Source: Mytilus trossulus (Eukaryota). From it: a stretch of 64,000 bases of DNA. Below the pieces are notes generated by a model. It was not told where the DNA came from. It did not search any database and saw only the letters and a list, made by a program, of their open reading frames with translations. This document shows positions 1 to 48,211 of this stretch, piece by piece. The translations under genes were made by a program, and so were the position numbers. How positions within the stretch are numbered: position 1 is the stretch's first letter; every line of letters begins with the position of its first letter. Where the stretch lies: positions 1,054,001-1,118,000 of the forward strand of contig NC_086386.1 in assembly GCF_036588685.1 (NCBI RefSeq), written 5' to 3'.

Positions 1-108
1 ATTTCACAGTAGCATGGGTTCGAATCCCGGCGAGGGAAGAACAAAACATTTGCGAAAGCAAATTTACAGATCTAACATTGTTGGGTTGATGTTTAGACGA
101 GTTGTATA
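1..108 (+). mobile_element. tRNA-derived SINE (5' truncated by the window edge)
   Basis: B box GGTTCGAATCC followed by a non-tRNA body. Confidence 0.55.
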
Positions 109-114
109 TATGTA

Positions 115-415
115 CCGATTATCAGGTTATCTGCATGTTGATATCGTAAAATATCAGCTGCGAGACATAATATGAAGCTTTTTGTCGAGTGAGCGTAGCG
201 AACGAGATCAAAAAGCCTTCATATAATGTCAAGCAGCTGATATTTTACAATATCAATATGCAGATAATTTTATAATCGATTTATCGGGCTATATTTGCGT
301 GTTTTCTTTAATTGTTTCACCAGCACACAAAAGGTTACTTGATAAGTTCGGGTCAACGTTATTAACGTCGGTTCACACATTATGACGTCGCTGATATGTC
401 CGGGTCAAAGTTATT
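115..415 (+). mobile_element. Long-hairpin element (partial)
   Basis: Foldback 116-280 with a GCGTAGC tip. Confidence 0.62.
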
Positions 416-1771
416 AAGGGCATACGATACAGTTTCGATCCTGTATTTAAAAGTTCATGAAAATCTGCATAAAGGCTATTTTTTACCTGATTAAATCAAA
501 TATGTAATGAAAAATATACCTTCATGTGCTACTTTTTGAGTAAAATGAGGTCGAAATTTTGTATATTTGCTCGAAATTGAGATTTGTAGCCGTAATTTCT
601 TTTTCGAAAGAAAGACATAACTTTTTTGTTATAAAAGATAAAAACAAATTATATTATTTTGTGCGCACAATTTATTTATGTTGTGCGCACAATATATTTT
701 GTTTTCTTTGAATGTCCCTAGCAGGGCTCCGTAGTAAGTGGTACCTAATCTTCATCGTATTAATATACATTTGATATGTATTTATATATAAACATACATG
801 TTATATTCATTCTCAATTTTATTATAGTCATACACAAGAAGAACATTCTGATCACATCCATTCTCTTTTGTGAATCTTTGGTATCATTGACTAAATGAAT
901 ACAATTGCCTTAACCACTTTTTATCAGTTTGGTGATTTTTTTCCTGAACAGATGTATTTGATGTGTCCGACATACTATGGTGAAATGACTTTACATGATA
1001 AATCATGTTTATATCAGAAAGTAAAAGAACCCATTAAAGGCATTGATGTGAAAAATACTCGTTACCTGAAAGGTTTCTTTCAGGAGAAGAAGTCCGATAC
1101 GGATGAAACTCAGGTTATCAAACCTAGAGGAGATATGTACACCCTATCCAAACAGCATGGGAGACGTAGAAGTACAGGAACTACCCAAATTAGTGTGAGC
1201 TGTACAAGATCTACAAAAATATCCCGCCTGCCCTAAAGGTGCATAGGGTCGACCACGATCCAGTACTAATGGTACAAATATCTACCGGAGTTACACTGAC
1301 GTGGTAGTAAGTACTTAAAGGTCACCATACGGCCTCCAACAATGAAAAAAACAACATTTGGTCGGCTATAAAATGCCCCGACCATAAACATTTGAAAATA
1401 TTCAAACAAAACTAACGGCCTTATTGATAACAAAAGAGTCTACGAAAATCCGACATGAACCATGAACAGCAACCACTATACTACATGTTCCTGGCTTTTG
1501 AATGGGCATTGTCACATAAACAAATGTAGTGGCCATAAACCAAACCCTTCCCAATGAACCCAACTTAGGACAACAAACGCAAGAAAAACTGTTAAATATC
1601 AGTTGCAATTTGCTTCCCTTAGAATGTTGGTACGGTGCACAATATTCACTTACATAAAAACAATGAACACAAAGCACCGAGATAAAAGTACTCGAGGTCA
1701 CTGAAAGCTATTTCAAAACTAGCGAAAATGTAAACGCACTAGGGGACATAGACATGGACGTCAAGTTGGTT

Positions 1772-2689: not shown

Positions 2690-5560
2690 GTTTAATTCGT
2701 TCCATTACTCGCTTATAATACGTGTGTCATACGTTGCACCTTTTTAAACATGATTTTCAATTGTTTTGTTGTCTCTGGTGGTACATTTGGGTTCTTAGAG
2801 GTTATATAACTCTATAAGCGCATATATACCCGTTCCAGCTCTCGGATAATATCCTGTTAAATATTCGTTACTTATTCGCTTTTAATACGTTTGTTGTACG
2901 TTGCACCTTTTAGAAAAGGATTTTCAATAGTGTCCATGTCTCTGGTGGTAACAATGTGTTCTTAGAGATGAAATGACCCTATTAGCGCGCATGTACCCGT
3001 TCCAGCGCTCGATTATTACCCTGTTACCTTTTCGTTACCTATTCGTTATTTATTCACTTATAATACGTTTGTTGTACGTTAAACCTTTAAGAAAAGGATT
3101 TTCAATTGTGTTCATGTCTCTGGTGGTAACAATGTGTTCTTAGAGATGAAATGACCTATTAGCGCGTATGTATCCGGTCCAGCGCTTGGATAATAACCGG
3201 TTACTTATTCGTTCCTTATTCGCTTTAAATGGCAAGGTAAACGTTGTACCTTAAAATACATCGTTTTTTAATTGTGTTCATGTCTCTGGTGGTAACAATG
3301 TGTTCTTAGCGATGAAATGACCCAATAAGCGCGCATGTTCCCGTTCAAGCGCTCGGTTAATACCCTGTTACCTATCCGTTACCTATTCACTTATAATACG
3401 TTTGTTGTACATTGCACCTTCTAGAAAAAAGGATTTTCAATTGTGTCAATGACTATGGTGGTAACAATGTGTTCTAAGAAATGAAATGACCCTATTAGCG
3501 CGCATGTTCCCGTTCCAGCGCTCAGATAATATCCGGTTACTTATTCTTTACCTATTCACTTATAATACGTTTGTTGTACATTGCACCTTTTAGAAAAAAA
3601 GGATTTTCAATTACGTCCATGTCTCTGGTGGTAACAATGTGTTCTTAGAGATGAAATGACCCTAATAGCGTGCATGTATCCGTTCCAGCGCTTGGTAAAT
3701 ACCCTGTTACCTATATACAATTTTTTTCAGGTACAACGTTTTCCCTGCGTATTAAAAGCGAATAAGGAACGAATAAGTAACCGGGTATTATCCGAGCGGT
3801 GGAACGGGTACATACGCGCTAAAAGGGGTATTTTATCTATAAGAACACAATGTTACCACCAGAGATATGAACACAATTGAAAAATCCTTTTTCTAAAAGG
3901 TGCAACGTACAACAAACGTATTAAAAGCGAATAAGTAACGAATAGGTAACGAATACGTAACAGGGTATTAACCGAACGCTGAAACGGGTACATCAGCGCA
4001 AATAGGGTCTTTTCATCTCTAAGAACACAAATGGAAATCCTTTGCTAAAAGGTGCAACGTACAACAAACGTATTATAAGTGAAAATGTAACGAAAAGGTA
4101 ACGAATAGGTAACAGGGTATTAACCGATCGCTGGAATGGGTACATGCGCGCTTATATGGTCATTTCATCTCTAAGAACACATTGTTACCACCAGAGACAT
4201 GGACACAATTGAAAATCCTTTTCTAAAAGGTGCAACGTACAACACACGTATTATAAGTGAATAGGTAACGAATAGGTAACAAATTGGTAACAGGGTATTA
4301 ACCGAGCGCTGGAACGGGTACATGCGCGCTAATAGGGTCATTTCTTCTCTAAGAACACATTGTTACCACCAGAGACATGGACACAGTTGAAAATTCTTTT
4401 CTAAAAGTTGCAACGTACAACAAACGTATTATAAGTGAATAGGTAACGAATAGGTAACAAGGTATTAACCGAGCGCTGGAACAGGTGCATACGAGCTAAT
4501 AGGGTTATTTAAGAAATAATTCATGGGGGCTTGAATATATCGTGATTTTACCACGGGTTGGCCCTTTATGACAAATATTTTACCCTGAGCGATAGCGAGG
4601 GGTAAAATATCGGCATAAAGGGACAACCCGTGGTAAAATCTAGATATATTCAAGCCCCCATGAATTATTTCTATTCTAATAGGTCAAATACGGCAATTCT
4701 TTTGGATCGAAGCGCTCTAGGTGGAGGCAAATATTTTCCATTCCCATAAATAAACGCACTTTTAAATTGGCGTAAAAGAACGGAGCAAACTGAATTAGTG
4801 ACATGCTTAAACTATTTAAAATAACGTATATAGATAGTTTTAATTAATATAAATGATAATTTACTTATATGTCTTAAATATTTCAACAAATGTGGCTTAT
4901 AACACATTTTAGCATCGTTTGTTTACGTTTCCATGTTGTGATGATTTTCGGATTTAAAAGTGTGTATTTTTCCCGTAAAATGCTCATATTCTAACGTCAT
5001 CGTTTTATGACGTCGCGAAACTCATTCATAAAAAAGCATATGACGTGGGAGTACGATCGGAACAGCCCATGCAATATATTCAAATTTTACCACGGGTGTG
5101 TACTCAAAGCGTATGAAGGACGTCATGTTAGAATTCGTCTTTAAGAACACATTGTCACCACCATAACGATGGACACAATTAAAAATCCTTTTCTAAAAGG
5201 TGCAACGTACAACAAACGTATTATAAGTGAAAAGGTAACGAATAGGTAACGAATAAGTAACAGGGTATTAACCGAGCGCTGGAACGGGTACATGCGTGCT
5301 AATAGGGTCATTTCATCTCTAAGAACACATTGTTACCACCAGAGACATGGACAAAATTGAAAATCCTTTTCTAAAAGTTGCAACGTACAACAAACGTTTT
5401 ATAAGTGAATAGGTTACGAATAGGTAACAAATAGGTATCAGGATATTAACCGAGCGCTGGAACGGGTGCATACGAGTTAAGAACACATTGTTACCACCAG
5501 AACGATGGACACAATTGAAAATCCTTTTCTAAAAGGTGCAACGTACAACAAACGTATTAT
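2690..5560. repeat. ~166-179-bp satellite array: forward copies 2690-3715, inverted copies 3730-5560
   Basis: ctctggtggtaacaatgtgttcttag recurs about every 170 bp, then appears as the reverse complement. Confidence 0.92.
4510..5134 (+). mobile_element. Non-autonomous long-hairpin element inserted in a satellite monomer
   Basis: ~160-bp foldback at 4512-4672; arm core ttttaccacggg repeated at ~5085; the satellite resumes at 5135. Confidence 0.72.
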
Positions 5561-6638
5561 AGAGAATTCTCGATATCTGACTTTACTAACGTCAAACATA
5601 AAGTATACGTAAGAAATCAAAATTAAGACTATATTTGAGATTGAATTGTCTCCCTTTTTCCTAAATGCATTCAGCTATAATTTCGCCTTTATCTTCATAT
5701 GTTTTCTTTATCTAATTAGGATACTAGTATTTGAAGTAAAACAACATTAGTGGAAAACGTTTATTTTCAGTTAGGGAATCATGAATACATTGGACAAATA
5801 AACAATATTTTGTTGGTTGATACTGTACGTGTAAGTTTTTGTTTGATAGAAACAAACCGATCAAAAAACAGATACAGCCCAATGCCATTAATTGGCTGAA
5901 TTTTGCTTTATGATCTGGTGTGGTCTTTTTGAAATGTTTTCGTCTTTCATTTTTTTATAATTCGTCATCCCGGACTTTAATATCTCAGATCGTTAATCTA
6001 TGTCCTAGCTTAGACTATTTCTTACGAGTTATTTATTGTGAATTGTTGCAACCTTTTTTTTAAACTGATTTTTACCGACTGCTGTTGTATCGCTTTCTAA
6101 ACTTAGGAGATCATTTTGAGTCGGTAAACATGTTTGTCCACCGCCATAATTTATGCTCAGTCATATGCTACTCGGTGTTTGACTTTGTTGCTGCTTATAA
6201 TATTTGTGTTTGGTTCGCACATGTTTGCTTTCTCGTTTTAATTCCCTTTCCAAAAAAGAGATTTCGTCAGTGCACAATTAGTCGATCTTTAAGCTAACAT
6301 GCACGTCTTAAAACTTGAAAAAGCAGTTTTGTTTTTTTATTATTGATTTTGGTGACTTAAAATTATTGCCCATTAAATCGCAAGAAAAATAATCGTAATT
6401 AATGGAAGCAAAGGAAGTTATAAAGAGCTGATATTCAGTTTAGGATTCAATAACTGGAAACACTGCTATACATCTGTTATACTTTGTTTTAAATGTCAAG
6501 GGTTAATTATTAAGTCAAAGCATGATATAATTATTATAATATTATAATTGAAGTAAAAAATCTCAAAATACAAATATCATCTCACTTTGTTGACGATATT
6601 CACGATATTCACACCAAAATAGGTTGTATCTCTAATTT

Positions 6639-7133
6639 AAAGTTGTGTTTGACGTAAAGTTGTGTTTTGCGTATACTAGTAGTTAAAGTTGTGTTTGACG
6701 TAAAGTTGTGTTTTGCGTATACTAGTAGTTAAAGTTGTGTTTGACGTAAAGTTGTGTTTTGCGTATACTAGTAGTTAAAGTTGTGTTTTACGTAAAGTTG
6801 TGTTTTGCGTATACTAGTAGTTAAAGTTGTGTTTGACGTTTTTACGTAAAGTTGTGTTTTGCGTATACTAGTAGTTAAAGTTGTGTTTGACGTAAAGTTG
6901 TGTTTTGCGTATACTAGTAGTTAAAGTTGTGTTTTACGTAAAGTTGTGTTTTGCGTATACTAGTAGTTAAAGTTGTGTTTGACGTTTTTACGTAAAGTTG
7001 TGTTTTGCGTATACTAGTAGTTAAAGTTGTGTTTGACGTAAAGTTGTGTTTTGTGTATACTAGTAGTTAAAGTTGTGTTTTACGTAAAGTTGTGTTTTGC
7101 GTATACTAGTAGTTAAAGTTGTGTTTTGCGTAT
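6639..7133 (+). repeat. 46-bp minisatellite, ~10 copies
   Basis: Unit aagttgtgtttgacgtaaagttgtgttttgcgtatactagtagtta. Confidence 0.95.
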
Positions 7134-8036
7134 AGTTATTATTACTAGTATTTTGAAGGTTTGTTTTAACCCCGTCAGAAAGACATTATAGTCAAGTCAG
7201 AATCACCATGTGTAAAATTATAAAAAAATATCTATAGATAAATTTTAATGGTTGATACAAAACTTCACGCCAACATATACATGTGTCGAAGATAGTTCTT
7301 GTTTGTTTATTGTCGTCAGTACATAATTAAGGCAATCTGAAATTGAGCCCTGGGTCTGGACTAAAACTCAATAATGAAGGTCATACGGTAACCAATAGTT
7401 GCTTAAAATCAACATTACTCCCCCTTGTAGTTAGCTATCTGATTGTTTATATTGTTAGATATCGACCATTCATCTTTTGTGGTTAAACATAGGATTTTTA
7501 AACAGTTTTATTCTTTATGCTTCATATATACTTCATCAAATTGTCTGTACGAAATAAAATGCCCCTCCGCACCAAATTTTCAAACAAATAAAAAGATTGT
7601 GCGTTCCTTCTACGATGTCAAAATTACCGAAAGAAATAACTGCGACCTTAACAGTGCCAATTTCAAGCCTAGTTACCGGATTTTTTTTTATTGTAATGCT
7701 TTATCTACCAAAATATTGTTTTTAATCTTAGAAGTATCTATATTCCCTTTTTCATATTAAAAATTTGCCGATTTTGTTTCTTGTTTTACCGTCAAAGAAG
7801 TAGTTTTAGAGTCTGAGCTTATCACACTTTATTCACATTAGAGTCAGTTAAACGTTGATGTATATTTGGACCATTTATAATCAAAAAAAGAAAAACTAAG
7901 TGATCATGGTATGATAACATTATAATACTAAAACCAAAAGTTAGCATTTGCTATGATGAAAAGGGAAAGGCCATGTACGTTAAAAGTGATAAGTGTAATA
8001 TGTACATGGATGTTTATTCTAAATGTTTAGATGTTT

Positions 8037-8366: not shown

Positions 8367-10357
8367 TTTTTTGTATCCCGCTACTAATAAGAAATTGTCA
8401 ATGACGTGTTAACTTCTTTTTTATGTGCGTTTGAGTAAAGACATGAAAGGCATTGACATTACTCTTTGTTGAAAGATATTTCAGATGAAAAATACGAATC
8501 CTTGTTTATTTACGATTAAAATGGCTTTTTTTTACAATCATTCAAACTTACTTTTAATAGACAATTCTTTTGTACCTTGTATGTATCTTTTATTTTCATT
8601 TTGAAGAGAAGAGATACGTAAATAGTTGAAGTAATTTGTGTCATGGTAGCAAAAGAGAGTAAAAAAGTAAAAAATCCTTCAGCCTAATCTTTATACTACC
8701 TGATTTTGAATCTTGTAGTTGTAGTGTATCTAGCACGAGGTTTTCGCAAATATTCTTTTCTAAAGCAAATAAATCGCGTAATTCTGTTTCGGTTGACCGA
8801 TTTTACAACCACATGTACATGCTTTAGTTCAACGAAGTACTTAGATATTGTCTTCAAATAATTTTAAGCTTTCTTATACCCCATATATTTCTGAAAATCA
8901 TTCATATTATAAATGTATTGGTTAACTTGGTTTATTTTTTCTGTACTAATTTTCATCATAAGTGATTTCTGTTTTGGTCAATTCATTTTATTTGTAAACA
9001 TTATATACTCTACACTATAAGTAGTTAGTTTGCTAAAACAATCATTCGTCTTTGAGAGTTTAAATGATCTTCACTTAGGCACAAATATTTGTAAAGCATT
9101 GCATATTTGTAACCAAATATCTTCTACATATTGCATAATTATTGTATTTCGTTAACGATAAATGAAAGTTCTAAAGTCATAAGACTCTAATGTAAAAAGA
9201 AGTTTTCAAATCTCAAGTCCGAGGGTAGTCTTTATTAATTTGTGTTTAGTAATACTATTACTTTTTGTCAATGTTTTATAAATAGTATAATCAATTTATG
9301 ACTTTTGAACATCGGTAAACTACTATTGCTTTTATTTATATTGCAAAACATCGATATTATCGTCATTTTATTAACAATTTTTAAATTCTATAGAACAAAA
9401 TCTCAAAGTTGTTTAAAATTATAAAGTTACTAATCAATCGTTCTATGTTGGGGTGTGAATATTTGAGGTTATAATCAGGTTATAATTAAGTGATTTTTGT
9501 GTCATATTTGTTGTCCTGTTCAGATTATAATTAGGTGATTTTTGTGTCCTATTTCAGGTTCTGTTCAGGTTATAATTGCGTGATTTTTGTGTCATTTTTG
9601 TGGTCCTGTTCATGTTATAATTAAGTGATTTTTGTGTCCTTTTTTAAGGTTCCGTTCATGTTATAATAAGTGATTTTTGTGTCATATTTGAGGTTCTGTT
9701 CAGGTTATAATTAAGTGATTTTTGTGTCGTATTTGTGGTTCTCTTCAGGTTATCATTAAATAATTTTTATGTCATATTTGAGGTTCTGTTCAGATTATAG
9801 TTAAGTGATTTTTGTGTCATATTTGAGGTCCTGTTCATGTTATAATTAGGTACAACAGATTAAATATTAACTGTACGTAGTTTAAAAGTAAATAGAAGAC
9901 GTCAAAAGGGAGCTACATGCAGTACTAATTTACTCATTGAAATAAACACATACAAGCGTCGCAGAGGCACGAAATGAATTTGTTAATCTAAAATAACATT
10001 GTGTTGTCAAAAAGATGGTACAATAGACTAGCGGTATATTAGAAAATAAACTGACAATGCCATAGCTTAAATTAAAAGACAAAAAGACAAAAAGACAAAC
10101 AGTCGAACAGACAAATAGACAAACAGTCGAACAGACAACTAATAGTACACAAAATACAACATAGAAAACTAAAGGCTGATCAACACAAACCCAACCAAAT
10201 CTTTGGGTGATCTCAGGTGCACCGGAAGGGTATGGAGATCCTGTTCCACATTTGACATCAGTGGTGTTGTTCGTGTAAGTACAAACCGGTTCAAAAGTTT
10301 AATTCGGAGGGTCACATAAAGGAAAAGGAGATGGGAGTGTAGTTACGACATTGAGAA
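8367..10357 (+). repeat. Segmental duplication block X (paralog at 45646-47560)
   Basis: Colinear diverged similarity over ~2 kb, including the shared 45-bp VNTR. Confidence 0.88.
9465..9850 (+). repeat. 45-bp minisatellite, ~8 copies (3 copies in the paralogous segment at 46935-47072)
   Basis: Unit caggttataattaagtgatttttgtgtcatatttgaggttctgtt. Confidence 0.92.
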
Positions 10358-41300: not shown

Positions 41301-44110
41301 TCAATGCCCTTTTTTCTTTCAATCAGGTTATTATTTGGTTGTATTCCCATATGAAATAACTGTACATGTGATTAGTATAATCTCAAGATAATAGTAGAAT
41401 TAACAATTGTTGGAGTGTGAAATATTCTTCGGATGTTTTGGATAAATTACGTGCTGGTGATATTCAATTTGACAGTTTTTACTTTTCAATTCTCTTACAT
41501 TACACTTCCACACACTTTTATCAAACAAAATGTCTCAACAAAGTGTAACGACAGGTTGTAGGTATGTGCACGAAATTTGCCACTGTAATAGCAGACTTTT
41601 TCTTGTACTGTTGCTAATCACAGTTTATAGTCAAACTCATTAAAAATCCGCCAATATAACATAATGATTCATTAACATTTTCCGTTATCTTGATGAAATA
41701 TTTTCGTTAAATAATCAAGAATTTTATAAACATACTGCCGAAATTTACACAATGGAATTGACTTAAAATAATCAGATATTAACGGTAATTATTATTTCTA
41801 GATTAAGATATTTGAGTTTTACACGGGAAATACACAGGTCTACCATTTACGACAAAAGAGACAATTTGTTCGTTCACTATAGTAATATTTAGACAATATA
41901 CGTATAGTGTCTTGAAATATGAAATTTATTTGTATGAGGCTTAAAAACGGGAAAATGCGAGGTTCTACCGAGCATTTTCCCGTTTCGTGCCGAATACAAA
42001 TAATTTTCATATTTCAAGACACTATACGTATATTGTCTTTATACTGAAATCGAAAAAAAAAATGAAAAATGAAAAAAACATGTAACAAAAATTGTTAAAA
42101 AAAGTGTTTGGAATTTCCCTCTTGGGGTACCATTTTGGGGTATTTCCCTATGAGCGTAGTCCAGGTGGTAAGACATTGGCGTATTACGGAATTAGAAAGG
42201 GAAAATGAACTTAATTAATAGCATTTGATAAACATGATATATAAATAACCAATTTGAAGACATAAAAGTTTTAATTCAAAAAAGTTTGACCATTGTTACT
42301 TTACGTTGTCATGGTCGTGACGTGATGTTGTTGATGAAATACAATAAGGAGGCGGGGCTTATAGGTCAATTGGGGTCATTGACGTATAAAGCTAACGTTT
42401 ATACGTATAGCTTTATCTGTACAGTAAAATAGCTGATTGCAGTATAAAAACCTTTTTCTGAGTTGCATATTTGTCTTTATGTAATATAGATTTTTATCAA
42501 TAAAAAAACTTCAAAGATGTACTTTAAAATATGATATTTTTTAAAACAAAAAGAAAAACCGAAAACTCTAGAAACAATTAGTAATATTAAAAGAAATGAT
42601 GTTTATGGAAAGCTCCAAAAAGAAATATATAATGAAATCCTACATGAGACCGCTTAAATGAGGATGAGACCCCTCTGATCTTTCAATGTTTATAAAATTA
42701 AACGAAATCATAGACTCTAAAATTGAGAAAGGAAATGTGTCAAAGCGATAACCACCCGACCATAGAGCAGACAACAGCCGAAGGCTACCAATGGGTCTTC
42801 AATATAGCGAGAATATATATAAAGGTTATATAAGAAGGAATAATGTCATCGTCGATATCTACGAAGGGCTTAGATTGCCACTTTTCAGCTGAAATTTGTC
42901 AACAATTAAGGAAAAGGGGCATATGGCAATGGTGAGAGCCCCTGATCTCTCACTCTTTCTAATAGTATGCAGACATTTAGTTTATAGGTAGATACAAACG
43001 TGACTCAAAGGAATGCGGTATACTTCCTGTTCCACGTTTACGGAGCGCCACAAGTGCCAGTTGGATATTCATATTACATAAAGACAAATATGCAACTTGA
43101 AAAGGGGTTTACGACAGCTTGAAGAGGTCATTAACCGATTTCCTACGTATCTTCTCATTCCTCTTTCAGACTATGAAAATCATGATTTTAATGCTGTCAA
43201 GTTATTTTTTATGGTTTTCAACTAAATTTTGAAAATCGAGTATCGAATAACGAACCGGCTGCTAACTTCACATACATTATAAAGAATTGTTTTTTAAGTT
43301 TGGTTGTAGACTTAGAAACTTATTTCAAACGGGGTAGCACATCCTTATTTTTACCGAGATGTTATTTACCGTGCCTGAAAATTTAGAAACGATCCTGATA
43401 AACCTATCGATCTTTTAAATATATCTTTTCTAATAAGTTACCAGTTCAACACTAAGGATATTGTTTTATTGGTATTAATTTTTATTTTGTCATCAGTATA
43501 TTAAATGCAAACTGAATGTTACTGTTATACACATTCAGTGTCGTTTTGATGTTTGGATGTACAAGTATCCAGCCACGTCTACTCTGTATTTTTGTAAGAT
43601 ATATTTCTATTTTTATCCATCTGATTAGTTAAGTCTTGTTCAACTGATTTTATAGTTTGTTCTTATGTTGTACTGACACACCACTGTCCCAAGTCAGGAG
43701 CCTGTAATTCAGTGGTTATCGTTTGTTGCTGTGAAATATATTTGTTTCGTGGATTTACTTTGTACACATATAAGGCCGTTAGTTCTCTCGTTTGAATTAC
43801 TTTTACATTTTGGGGTTAGTAACAGTTTACTATGAGGTATGGGCTTGTCTCATTGTTGAAGGCTGACGAGAGAGTTTTAGGTGTAATTGCTGTGTCATTC
43901 GGTTTCATGTTGGGAGTGTTCTCATTTGTAATCATACCATATATTCTGGTGGTTCATATTCATCTAATGGTTTGTTCTATTAATTTTGGCTTATTTCAAT
44001 TTAATAGTTACAAAGAAGGCTTTGAAATTGAAATTTCGAATCTGAAATAACTTTTTCACATCCGTAGAGTTCTATATTATATTATATACGCACCTTTCAT
44101 TTCCCAGCAT
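11211..44110 (-). CDS. PLA2G4: Cytosolic phospholipase A2 (group IV, cPLA2alpha-like), whole gene. Coding exons: 44110-44094, 39469-39442, 39138-39069, 38633-38469, 37183-37074, 35969-35938, 34138-34003, 32483-32347, 26712-26499, 25435-25327, 22999-22862, 22122-22075, 20361-20314, 17674-17653, 16816-16689, 14359-14190, 12022-11842, 11383-11211
   Basis: Manually spliced: all junctions GT-AG with compatible phases, 1926 nt = 641 aa plus stop. Motifs: WNETFRF (C2), GSGGGLR, GLSGSAW (catalytic Ser), EWIEFSPYE, LVDAGLAFNSPYP (catalytic Asp), ILSFDFS. The first two exons and the small linker exons are less certain. Confidence 0.93.
11842..12022 (-). CDS. PLA2G4: cPLA2 exon (QLEKAEEWARKRCIPFP...SPIIVHFVMINKSFRKL)
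   Basis: Conserved AE.W.....PFP and P.I.HFV..N..FR. Confidence 0.94.
13735..13935 (+). mobile_element. Degenerate retrozyme-family copy
   Basis: Homologous to 15568-15770 with a broken core (CTGGTGAG...CAAAAC). Confidence 0.6.
14190..14359 (-). CDS. PLA2G4: cPLA2 catalytic Asp exon (LVDAGLAFNSPYPTVLHPSRKVDVILSFDFS)
   Basis: Hallmark VD[SA]GL.FN.PYP...R.VD.I.SFDFS. Confidence 0.97.
15568..15770 (+). mobile_element. Retrozyme-family monomer fragment
   Basis: ggcatagattaccttagc...hammerhead...cctggtatctatgatgag, shared with the 35 kb and 47.8 kb copies. Confidence 0.75.
15688..15731 (+). ncRNA. Type I hammerhead ribozyme, intact core
   Basis: Stem I GCGUCA/UGGCGU, CUGAUGA, stem II GUCU-UUUGU-AGAC, GAAA, palindromic stem III ACGCGCGU, cleavage after GUC (15725). 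Confidence 0.85.
16689..16816 (-). CDS. PLA2G4: cPLA2 exon (RLVYSSVKDM...VGKVPNWLRGISV...GP)
   Basis: Corresponds to the cPLA2 'GKVHNFM.G' motif. Confidence 0.87.
17653..17674 (-). CDS. PLA2G4: cPLA2 22-nt microexon (ENPWNLC-R)
   Basis: ttttattgtag|...AG|gtattg; needed to convert phase 1 to 2. Confidence 0.7.
18085..18934. mobile_element. Nested pair of the same interspersed repeat family in opposite orientations (inner copy ~18351-18820)
   Basis: Outer copy split at cccgctttaa|...|atggcaatg; other family copies at 14670-15118 and 40670-40825. Confidence 0.7.
18937..19756. mobile_element. Tc1/mariner-pogo type MITE
   Basis: TA target duplication; TIRs CAGTAAAACCTGTATAAACC / GGTTTAATCAAGTTTGACTG; repeated ccggtttattcagg subterminal motif; splits the host motif aaggTAccagg. 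Confidence 0.8.
19757..20060 (-). mobile_element. Retrozyme-family copy with mutated hammerhead core (CUGGUAA)
   Basis: Reverse complement of the family; core substitutions. Confidence 0.7.
20314..20361 (-). CDS. PLA2G4: cPLA2 duplicated 48-nt exon (GMCVNETKIAENIMQA)
   Basis: Same length, phase and ends as exon 22075-22122; strong tttcctag / gtaagt sites. Confidence 0.7.
20667..20926 (+). mobile_element. Short HINE-like element
   Basis: Similar to the ends of 53702-54362. Confidence 0.55.
21688..21711 (-). CDS. Possible optional 24-nt cPLA2 microexon (VSEDIISS), not included in the 641-aa model
   Basis: Pyrimidine tract + tcag acceptor, CAG|gtttaa donor, symmetric phase 1. Confidence 0.35.
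22075..22122 (-). CDS. PLA2G4: cPLA2 48-nt exon (GMCGSGYAVLRNLRPA)
   Basis: Corresponds to the cPLA2 'G.WGSAF' motif; phase 1-1. Confidence 0.85.
22862..22999 (-). CDS. PLA2G4: cPLA2 exon (EWIEFSPYEVFIPKYGA...TIHFLNG)
   Basis: Conserved W.EFSPYE....KYG motif. Confidence 0.95.
25327..25435 (-). CDS. PLA2G4: cPLA2 exon (NVPWSEQAKKLKNGSMPLPLIAALHVREEK...)
   Basis: PLPL...LHV motif; canonical splice sites. Confidence 0.92.
25600..25930 (+). mobile_element. Penelope-derived 3' terminal repeat family (also 10030-10450, 11455-11590, 29090-29253, 33140-33660, 47240-47560)
   Basis: Shared gcaacacgacgg.tgccacat.tggagcag...ggtggggtt...ggtatctttcg. Confidence 0.6.
26499..26712 (-). CDS. PLA2G4: cPLA2 exon (WYLMSLYS...VADPFGYIISSFLLQK)
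   Basis: tatacag|G...AAG|gtaagc; lies within ORF 26436..26762. Confidence 0.92.
29480..30230 (-). mobile_element. L1/Tx1-clade LINE 3' ORF2 fragment (degenerate)
   Basis: Minus strand reads ...GKIDKIK.ATL.KDYLEGGSKMIDINLYLKALKLRWIN...NPF, typical of the Tx1 post-RT region. Confidence 0.65.
30880..31135 (-). mobile_element. Penelope-like RT fragment, inverted relative to 31395-32160
   Basis: Reverse complement encodes ASYLDLYLEIDNEG and IVNFPFLCSNIPA. Confidence 0.7.
31395..32160 (+). mobile_element. Penelope-like element RT fragment (pseudogenised)
   Basis: Frameshifted GIPMGTNC.PLL..LF, FR.IDDVL, YP.ELEIKD, SYLDLYLEID, KLYDK, NIPA.PAYGVY. Confidence 0.82.
32347..32483 (-). CDS. PLA2G4: cPLA2 catalytic exon (TPNIAIIGSGGGLRAV...YTAGLSGSAW)
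   Basis: Oxyanion GGG-R and nucleophile GLSGS motifs. Confidence 0.97.
32641..33140 (+). mobile_element. HINE-like element interrupted by another repeat (32821-33013)
   Basis: aacaagaatgtgtcc start, (GGAC/GAAC)n microsatellite, ctactatcgtag terminal hairpin. Confidence 0.6.
34003..34138 (-). CDS. PLA2G4: cPLA2 exon (HTDVKFRNINQLCRKEEIFIEKRRERVF...SEEKD)
   Basis: Matches the cPLA2 'LRF..LC..EK.F...R' helix; caatag|...|gtaagt. Confidence 0.9.
35161..35204 (+). ncRNA. Type I hammerhead ribozyme, first of a tandem pair
   Basis: gcgtca-ctgatga-gtct(tatgt)agac-gaaa-cgcgcgtc^tggcgt. Confidence 0.87.
35510..35553 (+). ncRNA. Type I hammerhead ribozyme, second of the tandem pair
   Basis: Identical core 349 nt downstream of the first. 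Confidence 0.87.
35938..35969 (-). CDS. PLA2G4: cPLA2 short exon (AKIEFDVISNP)
   Basis: gttttag|...CC|gtaagt; supplies the needed phase 0 to 2 bridge. Confidence 0.78.
37074..37183 (-). CDS. PLA2G4: cPLA2 C2-domain exon (DIRLLSFDKT...FDVNFSH)
   Basis: tttccag|...CAT|gtaagc, phase 1 to 0. Confidence 0.82.
38469..38633 (-). CDS. PLA2G4: cPLA2 C2-domain exon (VLAHIG...PTAWNETFRFIV...ELMF)
   Basis: C2 motif WNETF; tttcatag|...G|gtatgt. Confidence 0.88.
39069..39138 (-). CDS. PLA2G4: cPLA2 C2-domain exon (LSSPFAFVKFDITVKNDFRTWGV)
   Basis: ttcttcag|...G|gtaagt; beta-strand pattern of a C2 N-terminus. Confidence 0.8.
39442..39469 (-). CDS. PLA2G4: cPLA2 exon (SESKYQYYK)
   Basis: tttttag|G...AAA|gtaagt, phase 2 to 0. 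Confidence 0.7.
41889..42448 (+). mobile_element. Non-autonomous long-hairpin element inserted into a Penelope fragment
   Basis: Foldback 41891-42038; arm core tatacgtatag repeated at ~42400; a deleted inverted copy lies at 49684-49950. Confidence 0.72.
44094..44110 (-). CDS. PLA2G4: cPLA2 putative first coding exon (MLGNE-R)
   Basis: ATG CTG GGA AAT GAA AG|gtgcgt; the phase-2 donor fits the next exon. Acceptor ttacag at 44128 implies an upstream non-coding exon. Confidence 0.5.
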
Positions 44111-44393
44111 GTTTAACGAATGTCTCACTGTAATTGATAAGTAAATTAAATATATACAAGAGCAACAGTTAATTTCTTTGAGCATTTTTTTTTATCATAT
44201 ACTTTTTGATATGGTCGTATTGTGTGCAGTAAACAAAACAAAAAAAATAGATTGGTTGAAATATGTTATTACCACCTACTTTGGTACTTTATAGTATGCT
44301 ACGTCTAAGGTATGATTCTACACTTAATGTCCTTTCAATCATATTATATTGTTATTGACAATTAGTTTTTTTTCTGTCAATTTTATGGATTTT

Positions 44394-44764
44394 AAGACTT
44401 ACCCCTTCCTATATTTTAGTTGTAAAGACTTACCCCTTCCTATATTATAGTTGTAAAGACTTACCCCTTCCTATATTATAGTTGTAAAGACTTACCCCTT
44501 CCTATATTTTAGTTGTAAAGACTTATCCCTTCCTATGTTATAGTTGTAAAGACTTATCCCTTCCTGTATTATAGTTGTAAAGACTTACCCCTTCCTGTAT
44601 TATAGTTGTAAAGACTTACCCCTTCCTGTATTATAGTTGTAAAGACTTACCCCTTCCTGTATTATAGTTGTAAAGACTTACCCCTTCCTTTTTATAGTTG
44701 TAAAGACTTACCCCTTCCTGTATTATAGTTGTAAAGACTTACCCCTTCCTATATTTTAGTTGTA
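44394..44764 (+). repeat. 31-bp minisatellite, 12 copies
   Basis: Unit aagacttaccccttcct(a/g)tatt(a/t)tagttgta. Confidence 0.95.
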
Positions 44765-44949
44765 AACAACTTTGTATAGAATGGAAATTGATCTTTGTTA
44801 ATCCAATGAAATAAGTGTTCATTTGGAGAACATTAGGTACAGTGTTAATATTCTATTCATGAGTTTTGATATTTAAACTTTACGGGTGCCTTCATATTCA
44901 CCAATAGAAACTACAATTGACTAATTTTGTTTAGTTTAAACATATCTAT

Positions 44950-48032: not shown

Positions 48033-48047
48033 ATATAAGAGTTGCAA

Positions 48048-48210
48048 TATATAAAGAATAACCATACATTGTCTCAAAATATCAATCTGTTATTTGTACT
48101 CGGCTCGAAACAGGTAGAAATGCTCGGCACAGCCTCGCTTTCTACCTGTTTCTAAGCCTTGTACAAATGACATTGATATTTCGAGACAATGTATGGTTAT
48201 TCTATATATA
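48048..48210 (-). repeat. Long imperfect palindrome of the hairpin-element class
   Basis: Arms agaataaccatacattgtctc...gagacaatgtatggttattct. Confidence 0.7.
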
Positions 48211-48211
48211 T

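Follow-up and report, generated by a model that had tools for sequence, protein, structure and literature searches.

A hairpin with tandem G.A pairs opens a CryptonA-type transposon of Mytilus trossulus and may fold one strand for recombination

Why should a mussel genome carry a long hairpin whose tip sets GA against GA? The hairpin lies near the start of the stretch of Mytilus trossulus DNA analyzed here (the window, 64,000 nucleotides of contig NC_086386.1), and an earlier note had proposed that it was selected to fold as single-stranded DNA. Its tip (185-207, plus strand) reads TC-GA-GT-GA-GC-GTA-GC-GA-AC-GA-GA, letter for letter as that note had given it. The loop, G195 to A197 (GTA), is closed by G193:C199 and C194:G198, and two tandem GA/GA loops set GA 191-192 against GA 200-201 and GA 187-188 against GA 204-205. 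The central seven bases form a mini-hairpin of the GCGNAGC type, a motif treated in the accessible text of PMC13037366, and all four GA steps of the tip stand in the pyrimidine-GA-purine context for which sheared pairs of tandem GA are described in the accessible text of PMC10085684. A third two-by-two purine loop, GA at 162-163 (plus strand) opposite AA at 231-232, is GA/GA in two sister families, W2 and A, that are introduced below.

The long imperfect hairpin that carries this tip proved real, with a stem of about 75 bp (116-278, plus strand). Folded as DNA, it reaches -51.3 kcal/mol (z -10.8) on the plus strand and -51.9 kcal/mol (z -11.7) on the minus strand, and 0 of 200 shuffles equaled its stability on either strand. 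Nearest-neighbor energies support the hairpin but do not discriminate between the strands; the tip closes on the plus strand only. The extent that had been given for the structure, 116 to 280, needs amendment: the element to which it belongs starts at 112, and a linked segment (281-287) lies just beyond 280.

Comparison of its copies indicates that the hairpin forms the 5' terminus of a non-autonomous DNA transposon, 405 bp long and of the CryptonA type, which we call family W. The window copy (112-417, plus strand) comprises the 5' 313 of the 405 bp and matches L002, a full copy, with 94% identity across 315 columns. Full copies measure 402-406 bp as a rule, a few being internally deleted, and they start with GTACCGA and end with CCGATAA. 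A first-look genome search with the hairpin stretch gave 1167 candidates, 40 of them scored, and exact matches to a two-part pattern number 233; W is thus dispersed through the 1.3-Gb genome in at least 233 copies. On its left, the window copy adjoins a separate dispersed repeat (1-111, with matches at other loci), the tail of which supplies the putatively target-derived left repeat ATAT (108-111, plus strand; ATAW in the left-flank consensus of unbiased copies). On its right, it is truncated by an unrelated repeat (418-650, plus strand, with matches at four other places, five loci in all) that is inserted after TTAA (414-417) and that also follows TTAA in all three other loci where its start aligns. 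The copy thus lacks its last ~90 bp, including the CCGATAA end, and no remainder was found within the window. Elsewhere (L064 and L070), W copies are inserted into a W2 copy and, reversed, into another W copy. The likeness to parvovirus termini that had been drawn from the hairpin was rejected on anatomy, as the hairpin stands at the start of an integrated element and provides no 3' end for priming.

Which enzyme might act on such an element? A search for the DUF3504 domain (PF12012) yielded 150 scored matches of 341 candidates, and we examined 100 regions of 8-10 kb around recombinase hits. Among them is family A, represented by four copies of 3885 bp (L095-L098) that are 98.4-99.7% alike. 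Its terminal hairpin is 80% identical to that of the window over 121 bp and has the same tip; it starts with GTAC and ends with GATAA, and the first four bases and the 3'-end motif are common to W and A. The single large open reading frame of family A (637 amino acids) is a DUF3504 protein (PF12012, E 8e-25) in which inspection reveals the motifs R-K-H-R-H-Y (GLRG, KTRQG, HSAR, GH, LLSY) with the catalytic R-H-R-Y residues intact; R177 is invariant, and R315 and H338 nearly invariant, in A1. A structural model built from a 35-row alignment (pLDDT 86; single-sequence prediction gave 35) has a Cre-like fold (TM 0.65/0.75), whereas the integron integrase 2a3v scores TM 0.47/0.55 in what is a comparison of the overall fold only, and so the modeled recombinase appears nearer to Cre than to the integron integrase. 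The closest named protein is from Mytilus galloprovincialis (96%). In the structural comparison of this model (ma5bdfd7f0fb1), the first match was a domesticated relative, human QRICH1 as part of the Zincore complex (9hjt), and Cre came next. 

Because W shares its tip, first four bases, and 3'-end motif with the DUF3504-encoding family A, we file W, on the strength of DUF3504, as a putative non-autonomous member of the CryptonA type. Like CryptonA elements, W has neither a target-site duplication nor terminal inverted repeats. A search with the family A protein and inspection of 20 regions turned up no closer autonomous parent, and A is best regarded as a relative that differs from W within its ends. 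A full W copy near a recombinase gene (L092) falls outside the part that this region has in common with its relatives; we took it to be a neighboring insertion. The second short family, W2 (551 candidates), has the same tip as W, so that positions 185-207 are identical across W, W2, and A. The two GA/GA loops of the tip are preserved in 52 and 51 of 54 copies.

Tandem G.A pairs form in RNA too. One rival reading is that the hairpin acts as RNA, as a microRNA or siRNA precursor or in an RNA intermediate. We give this reading almost no credence. The matches to plant microRNA hairpins in Rfam stay below threshold (46 bits, with the cut-off at 99), and the sequence is present in contigs from RNA runs; yet none of the 67 small-RNA reads on the element (33 and 34 from two runs, of each of which ~12-13% was read) fell on the hairpin, family A has a recombinase and no other open reading frame of reverse-transcriptase size, and mini-hairpins of this sort lose much of their stability when made of RNA, according to the accessible text of PMC13037366. 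A microRNA precursor was rejected, as neither run stacked reads on a hairpin arm. The small-RNA reads on the body of the element (L002:1691-1913) are mostly antisense, with main piles of 30-31 nt, the size of piRNAs.

If the G.A pairs matter in DNA, they should keep to one strand, and the earlier note had suggested that copies be compared for just such a bias, with compensatory changes in the stems. We assembled 23 hairpins and oriented them independently of their GA content. For 19 of them the orientation came from the boundaries of the element or from kinship with a family whose boundaries are known; for the other four, all single copies, it came from their position relative to the recombinase gene. 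GA/GA was found on the hairpin-first strand in 22 of the 23, although the stems differ and carry compensatory Watson-Crick changes, and TC/TC in none. A script counted 29 GA/GA loops in 18 of the hairpins and no TC/TC; four more (C, D, s120, and s195) have GA/GA by eye in the unaligned tip, and the hairpin of family M has only a loop of the GCGAAGC type. The pairs between the GA loops vary (GC, GGC, CCC, GAC, CGC, and AGGGC), and the apical loops comprise 14 GNA, four GNNA, and five of other kinds. Mismatches of the G.T kind also outnumber A.C across hairpins (27 to 11, p 0.007, from related families that are not independent); in the terminal helices the count is only 7 to 2 (p 0.09), and within four families the variants that copies share give no such excess (12 to 8, p 0.25). 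Families N and P were picked for their GA tips before their orientation was known, and N at first seemed an exception.

In two sets of 40 regions around recombinase hits, 31 and 18 regions contain hairpins with GA tips; of the regions without one (9 of 40 and 22 of 40), some are truncated copies. Because such hairpins also occur in the background (four in the 64-kb window), their presence as such is not strong evidence, and only their placement at the boundaries of elements is. Further long hairpins with GA/GA tips lie in the window at 41891-42038 (plus strand), which resembles the hairpin adjoining the recombinase gene in L178, and at 48047-48211 (minus strand). The window also holds a complete 625-bp copy of the non-autonomous family D (4510-5134, plus strand), with the tip GA-GC-GATA-GC-GA and a 3' end complementary to its post-hairpin segment, inside an array of ~170-bp repeats (~2700-5560). 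Other tandem arrays lie at 1741-2105, 6602-7183, 9459-9869, and 44287-44812 (periods of 11/14, 17/46, 45, and 31 bp). Short internal GA/GA hairpins on the strand opposite the terminal one were seen downstream of the recombinase gene in families G (L093/L184) and K (L102/L177) and upstream of it in L218.

The second regularity concerns the other end of the element. The last seven bases of W, CCGATAA, are the complement of TTATCGG (281-287, plus strand), which stands directly past the hairpin and is predicted to pair with that end across a circle junction. The two sequences change together: W2 has ACGATAA with TTATCGT and A has ATGATAA with TTATCAT, W2 thus bridging the 3' motifs of the other two. 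A 3' end complementary to the post-hairpin segment, over 7-24 bp, is present in 13 of the 14 families for which both ends are defined, whereas non-cognate pairs of end and segment match over a median of 3 bp, with 14 of 182 reaching 7. In all 13 fitting families, moreover, the partner strand at the junction is exactly two bases shorter, leaving two extra bases on the cut strand; in W these would be the first two bases of the element, GT (112-113, plus strand), in the predicted fold. Family M misfits the rule by script (a run of 3; two copies and an ambiguity in a run of T). The starts of W, W2, N, and P (25-30 copies each) and of A and B are secure; for C, D, E, G, and L, each start is supported by one to three full-ended copies. 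Families K, J, and H1/H3/H4 fit after the fact and stand outside the count of 14.

For N and P, the post-hairpin segment served to predict an end that had yet to be located. The predicted end was then found in both, with 24 bp in N and with 9 bp in P, there at ~1.33 kb in 27 of 30 copies. The sequences suggest that a circle formed by joining the two ends would fold over the junction so created. Natural tandem copies provide such junctions (L020, L304, and L100), and in folding calculations the predicted structure spans them, with standard energies equal on both strands. Head-to-tail arrays with exact end-to-start junctions occur for autonomous (family B, period 3661 bp) as well as non-autonomous elements (L048-L051, L100, L125, L304/L305, and L020), and the junction of the ~2.8-kb repeats in L125 is of another kind and looks inverted. 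An exact search for the head-to-tail junction of W gave no matches, the sole tandem seen (L020) having a diverged second copy, and comparison with contigs (X10 and X15) showed no end-to-start joint, although contigs are unable to show absence.

Where does the element insert, and which strand does it bring? Left flanks were counted without the first 30 loci, which were biased by the query, and with reverse-arm matches filtered out. The target consensus is ATAW|N6 WTAT, without duplication; among 30 W copies chosen by position, A, T, and A stand 24, 27, and 24 times at -4 to -2, and T, A, and T stand 24, 19, and 16 times of 27 at +8 to +10. The target is therefore a dyad, ATA-N8-TAT, with insertion one base inside the spacer; the same dyad recurs in W2 and N and is weaker in P. 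Its geometry is that of the Cre cut in loxP, and a central region of 6-8 bp is general for the recombinase family. This two-sided dyad bears on a further candidate, a non-autonomous Helitron or Helentron or another HUH rolling-circle element. The absence of duplication, a target that looks one-sided at first sight, and the tandem copies would suit such an element, but an element that encodes only a recombinase has this hairpin tip, these first bases, and this 3' motif in common with W, and the end motifs familiar from Helitrons are absent; we hold this identity to be very improbable.

The ends of the copies point to the inheritance of one strand. Of 49 copies, 48 have ATAA at the right end; a left 4-mer identical to the right one is seen in only 5 of 26, which suggests that the right ATAA comes from the donor and the left ATAW from the target. 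A match of three or more bases between left end and right start was seen in 4 of 26 W copies and has no fixed length. Were both strands inherited, a mismatched overlap would yield many target-derived starts; yet the first seven bases are exact in 204 of 233 W copies, and in smaller samples are kept in 24 of 26 (W), 24 of 25 (W2), 28 of 29 (N), and 29 of 30 (P). The strand inherited at the first bases is the one that bears GA/GA. At +1 and +2 the target shows no clear preference for the folded partner strand.

These observations have to be weighed against the published account (accessible text of PMC13565253 and PMC3212892), the Goodwin model, in which an ordinary duplex circle recombines by way of short, near-identical direct repeats (4-6 bp) at both ends, and inverted repeats bind protein and stay unfolded throughout. 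There is indeed an imperfect 4-bp direct repeat, ATAW/ATAA (the one identical in 5 of 26 copies), in the duplex junction of W, GATAA and TTATC flank 7 bp as inverted copies, the enzyme resembles Cre, and an inverted binding site would likewise covary with the end. Clean excision of CryptonF and integration of a synthetic Starship circle also fit a plain circle (10.1101/2022.05.23.493040; 10.64898/2026.09.21.753150; accessible text of both). The duplex circle leaves unexplained, however, why GA/GA keeps to one strand, why the offset is fixed at two bases, and why end complements extend to 24 bp; the target dyad is centered 3-4 bp to the right of the repeat rather than on it; and there are no copies with target-derived cores. 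We consider it unlikely.

We instead favor, as the probable course of events, a single-strand exchange on the folded top strand that is resolved by replication; the hairpin would likely serve to fold one strand of the element into a substrate for a Crypton tyrosine recombinase. The top strand would leave as a circle or be extruded as a cruciform arm. The GNA loop and the sheared G.A pairs would nucleate and stiffen the fold, on the top strand only. The joined ends would then pair with the internal complement, creating a recombination site with two extra bases beside the junction, and a Cre-like recombinase from an autonomous relative would cut after ATAW and exchange that strand only with a double-stranded ATAW|N6 WTAT target. 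Replication or repair would resolve the junction into an insertion without duplication, with a left ATAW from the target and a right ATAA from the donor. By analogy with the unpaired spacer of attC, the two-base excess may block a second exchange. It had been claimed that the tip is stable only in folded single-stranded DNA; its restriction to one strand stands, but a cruciform arm would offer the same structure, and the folding itself is deduced.

Recombination is likely to take place where the hairpin begins, ~75 nt from the tip, and so the tip probably nucleates or protects the fold. It might, on the other hand, be a priming or SSB-resistant signal for the second strand of the circle, with subsequent duplex insertion and strand-biased exchange as in bacterial SE elements. 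Mini-hairpins of the types GCGNAGC and GCGNNAGC occur at the priming sites of phages G4 and St-1 and at ssiA and bind SSB poorly (accessible text of PMC13037366), the tips of I and H2 (GC-GTTA-GC) and L (CC-GAA-GG) fit those motifs, and SE elements circularize one strand with tyrosine recombinases (accessible text of PMC9345347). Such a signal does not account for the end complement or the two-base offset, and the 5 of 23 tips with non-GNA loops still keep GA/GA. As a replacement for the folded-strand explanation we find it quite improbable; the two can coexist.

How does the mussel element compare with what is known? The Crypton superfamily is known; the end structure described here and the mechanism that it implies appear to be new with respect to the literature covered. 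The accessible text of PMC3212892 (Kojima and Jurka 2011), on CryptonA, and of PMC5753468, on the Eulor5/6 relics, describes elements that resemble the mussel ones in having a DUF3504 recombinase as the sole gene, no target duplication, and more non-autonomous than autonomous copies. According to the accessible text of the 2011 study, animal Cryptons had no terminal repeats, and "hairpin" does not occur there, nor in that of PMC13465315; the mussel ends, in contrast, resolve into a 5' hairpin, an internal complement of the 3' end, and an ATAW|N6 WTAT target. A 2026 review states that the Crypton mechanism had not been demonstrated experimentally and assumes a double-stranded circle (accessible text of PMC13565253). 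The design is not described in the accessible text of the Crypton literature covered (including PMC3212892, PMC13465315, PMC13565253, PMC5753468, PMC4455052, and PMC9345347). CryptonF and the Starships are likewise eukaryotic tyrosine-recombinase transposons with a short repeat shared by donor and target and a circle proposed or detected (accessible text of 10.1101/2022.05.23.493040 and 10.64898/2026.09.21.753150); CryptonF has near-identical repeats and excises cleanly, whereas the mussel repeat is imperfect and one-strand inheritance is indicated, and "hairpin" does not occur in the accessible text of the Starship preprint.

The ends thus offer a different and fully specified model for Cryptons, with substrates on the scale of oligonucleotides and an enzyme that is intact by sequence. 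If it is true, folded-strand recombination extends beyond bacteria, a gain in copy number without excision is explained, and a simple rule locates both ends of elements that were held to have no terminal structure. An integrase that resembles Cre, consists of one protein, and accepts a loose target of 14 bp could find use as a tool as well. We lean, somewhat less firmly than on the exchange itself, toward viewing animal CryptonA transposons as self-mobilizing elements in the manner of integron cassettes, which would make theirs the first eukaryotic tyrosine recombinase to act on a folded single strand, at a site that exists only when the ends join, with a two-base bulge that blocks the second exchange and with G.A pairs and GNA loops that select the strand.

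The likeness to substrates of tyrosine recombinases (attC and the attP of CTXphi) drawn in the earlier note was apt, as the element belongs among the recombinase-encoding Cryptons and its junction is predicted to fold in the manner of attP. In integron attC, acted on by IntI, one arm of an imperfect hairpin contains the crossover and pairs there with an inverted copy inside the site; unpaired bases differ between the strands, and one strand is used (accessible text of PMC2727003). The predicted fold of the mussel junction would have the same features. The window element is not itself an attC site: it has neither R boxes (RYYYAAC/GTTRRRY) nor a cassette array by intI, its ends are GTAC and ATAA, and its copies are dispersed in an animal genome. 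The systems differ further in that attC is bacterial, whereas the mussel family carries its own recombinase, nearer to Cre than to IntI in the model, and uses many AT-rich targets instead of attI; the excess bases of the predicted mussel junction, unlike those of attC, lie at the crossover; and the terminal structure of attC is variable and plays no role in strand choice (accessible text of PMC2727003), whereas the mussel tip is conserved. Nor is it an attP(+) of CTXphi, as arms for XerC/XerD and a dif target are absent and the target in this animal genome is ATAW|N6 WTAT. Nevertheless, attP(+) with XerCD (accessible text of PMC3089051) and attC both exemplify a folded strand that undergoes one strand exchange into a duplex target, as we propose for the mussel element. 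CTXphi is a phage that borrows host recombinases for one dif site, whereas the mussel transposon would employ an enzyme that transposons encode, a loose target, and a site assembled only on the joining of its ends.
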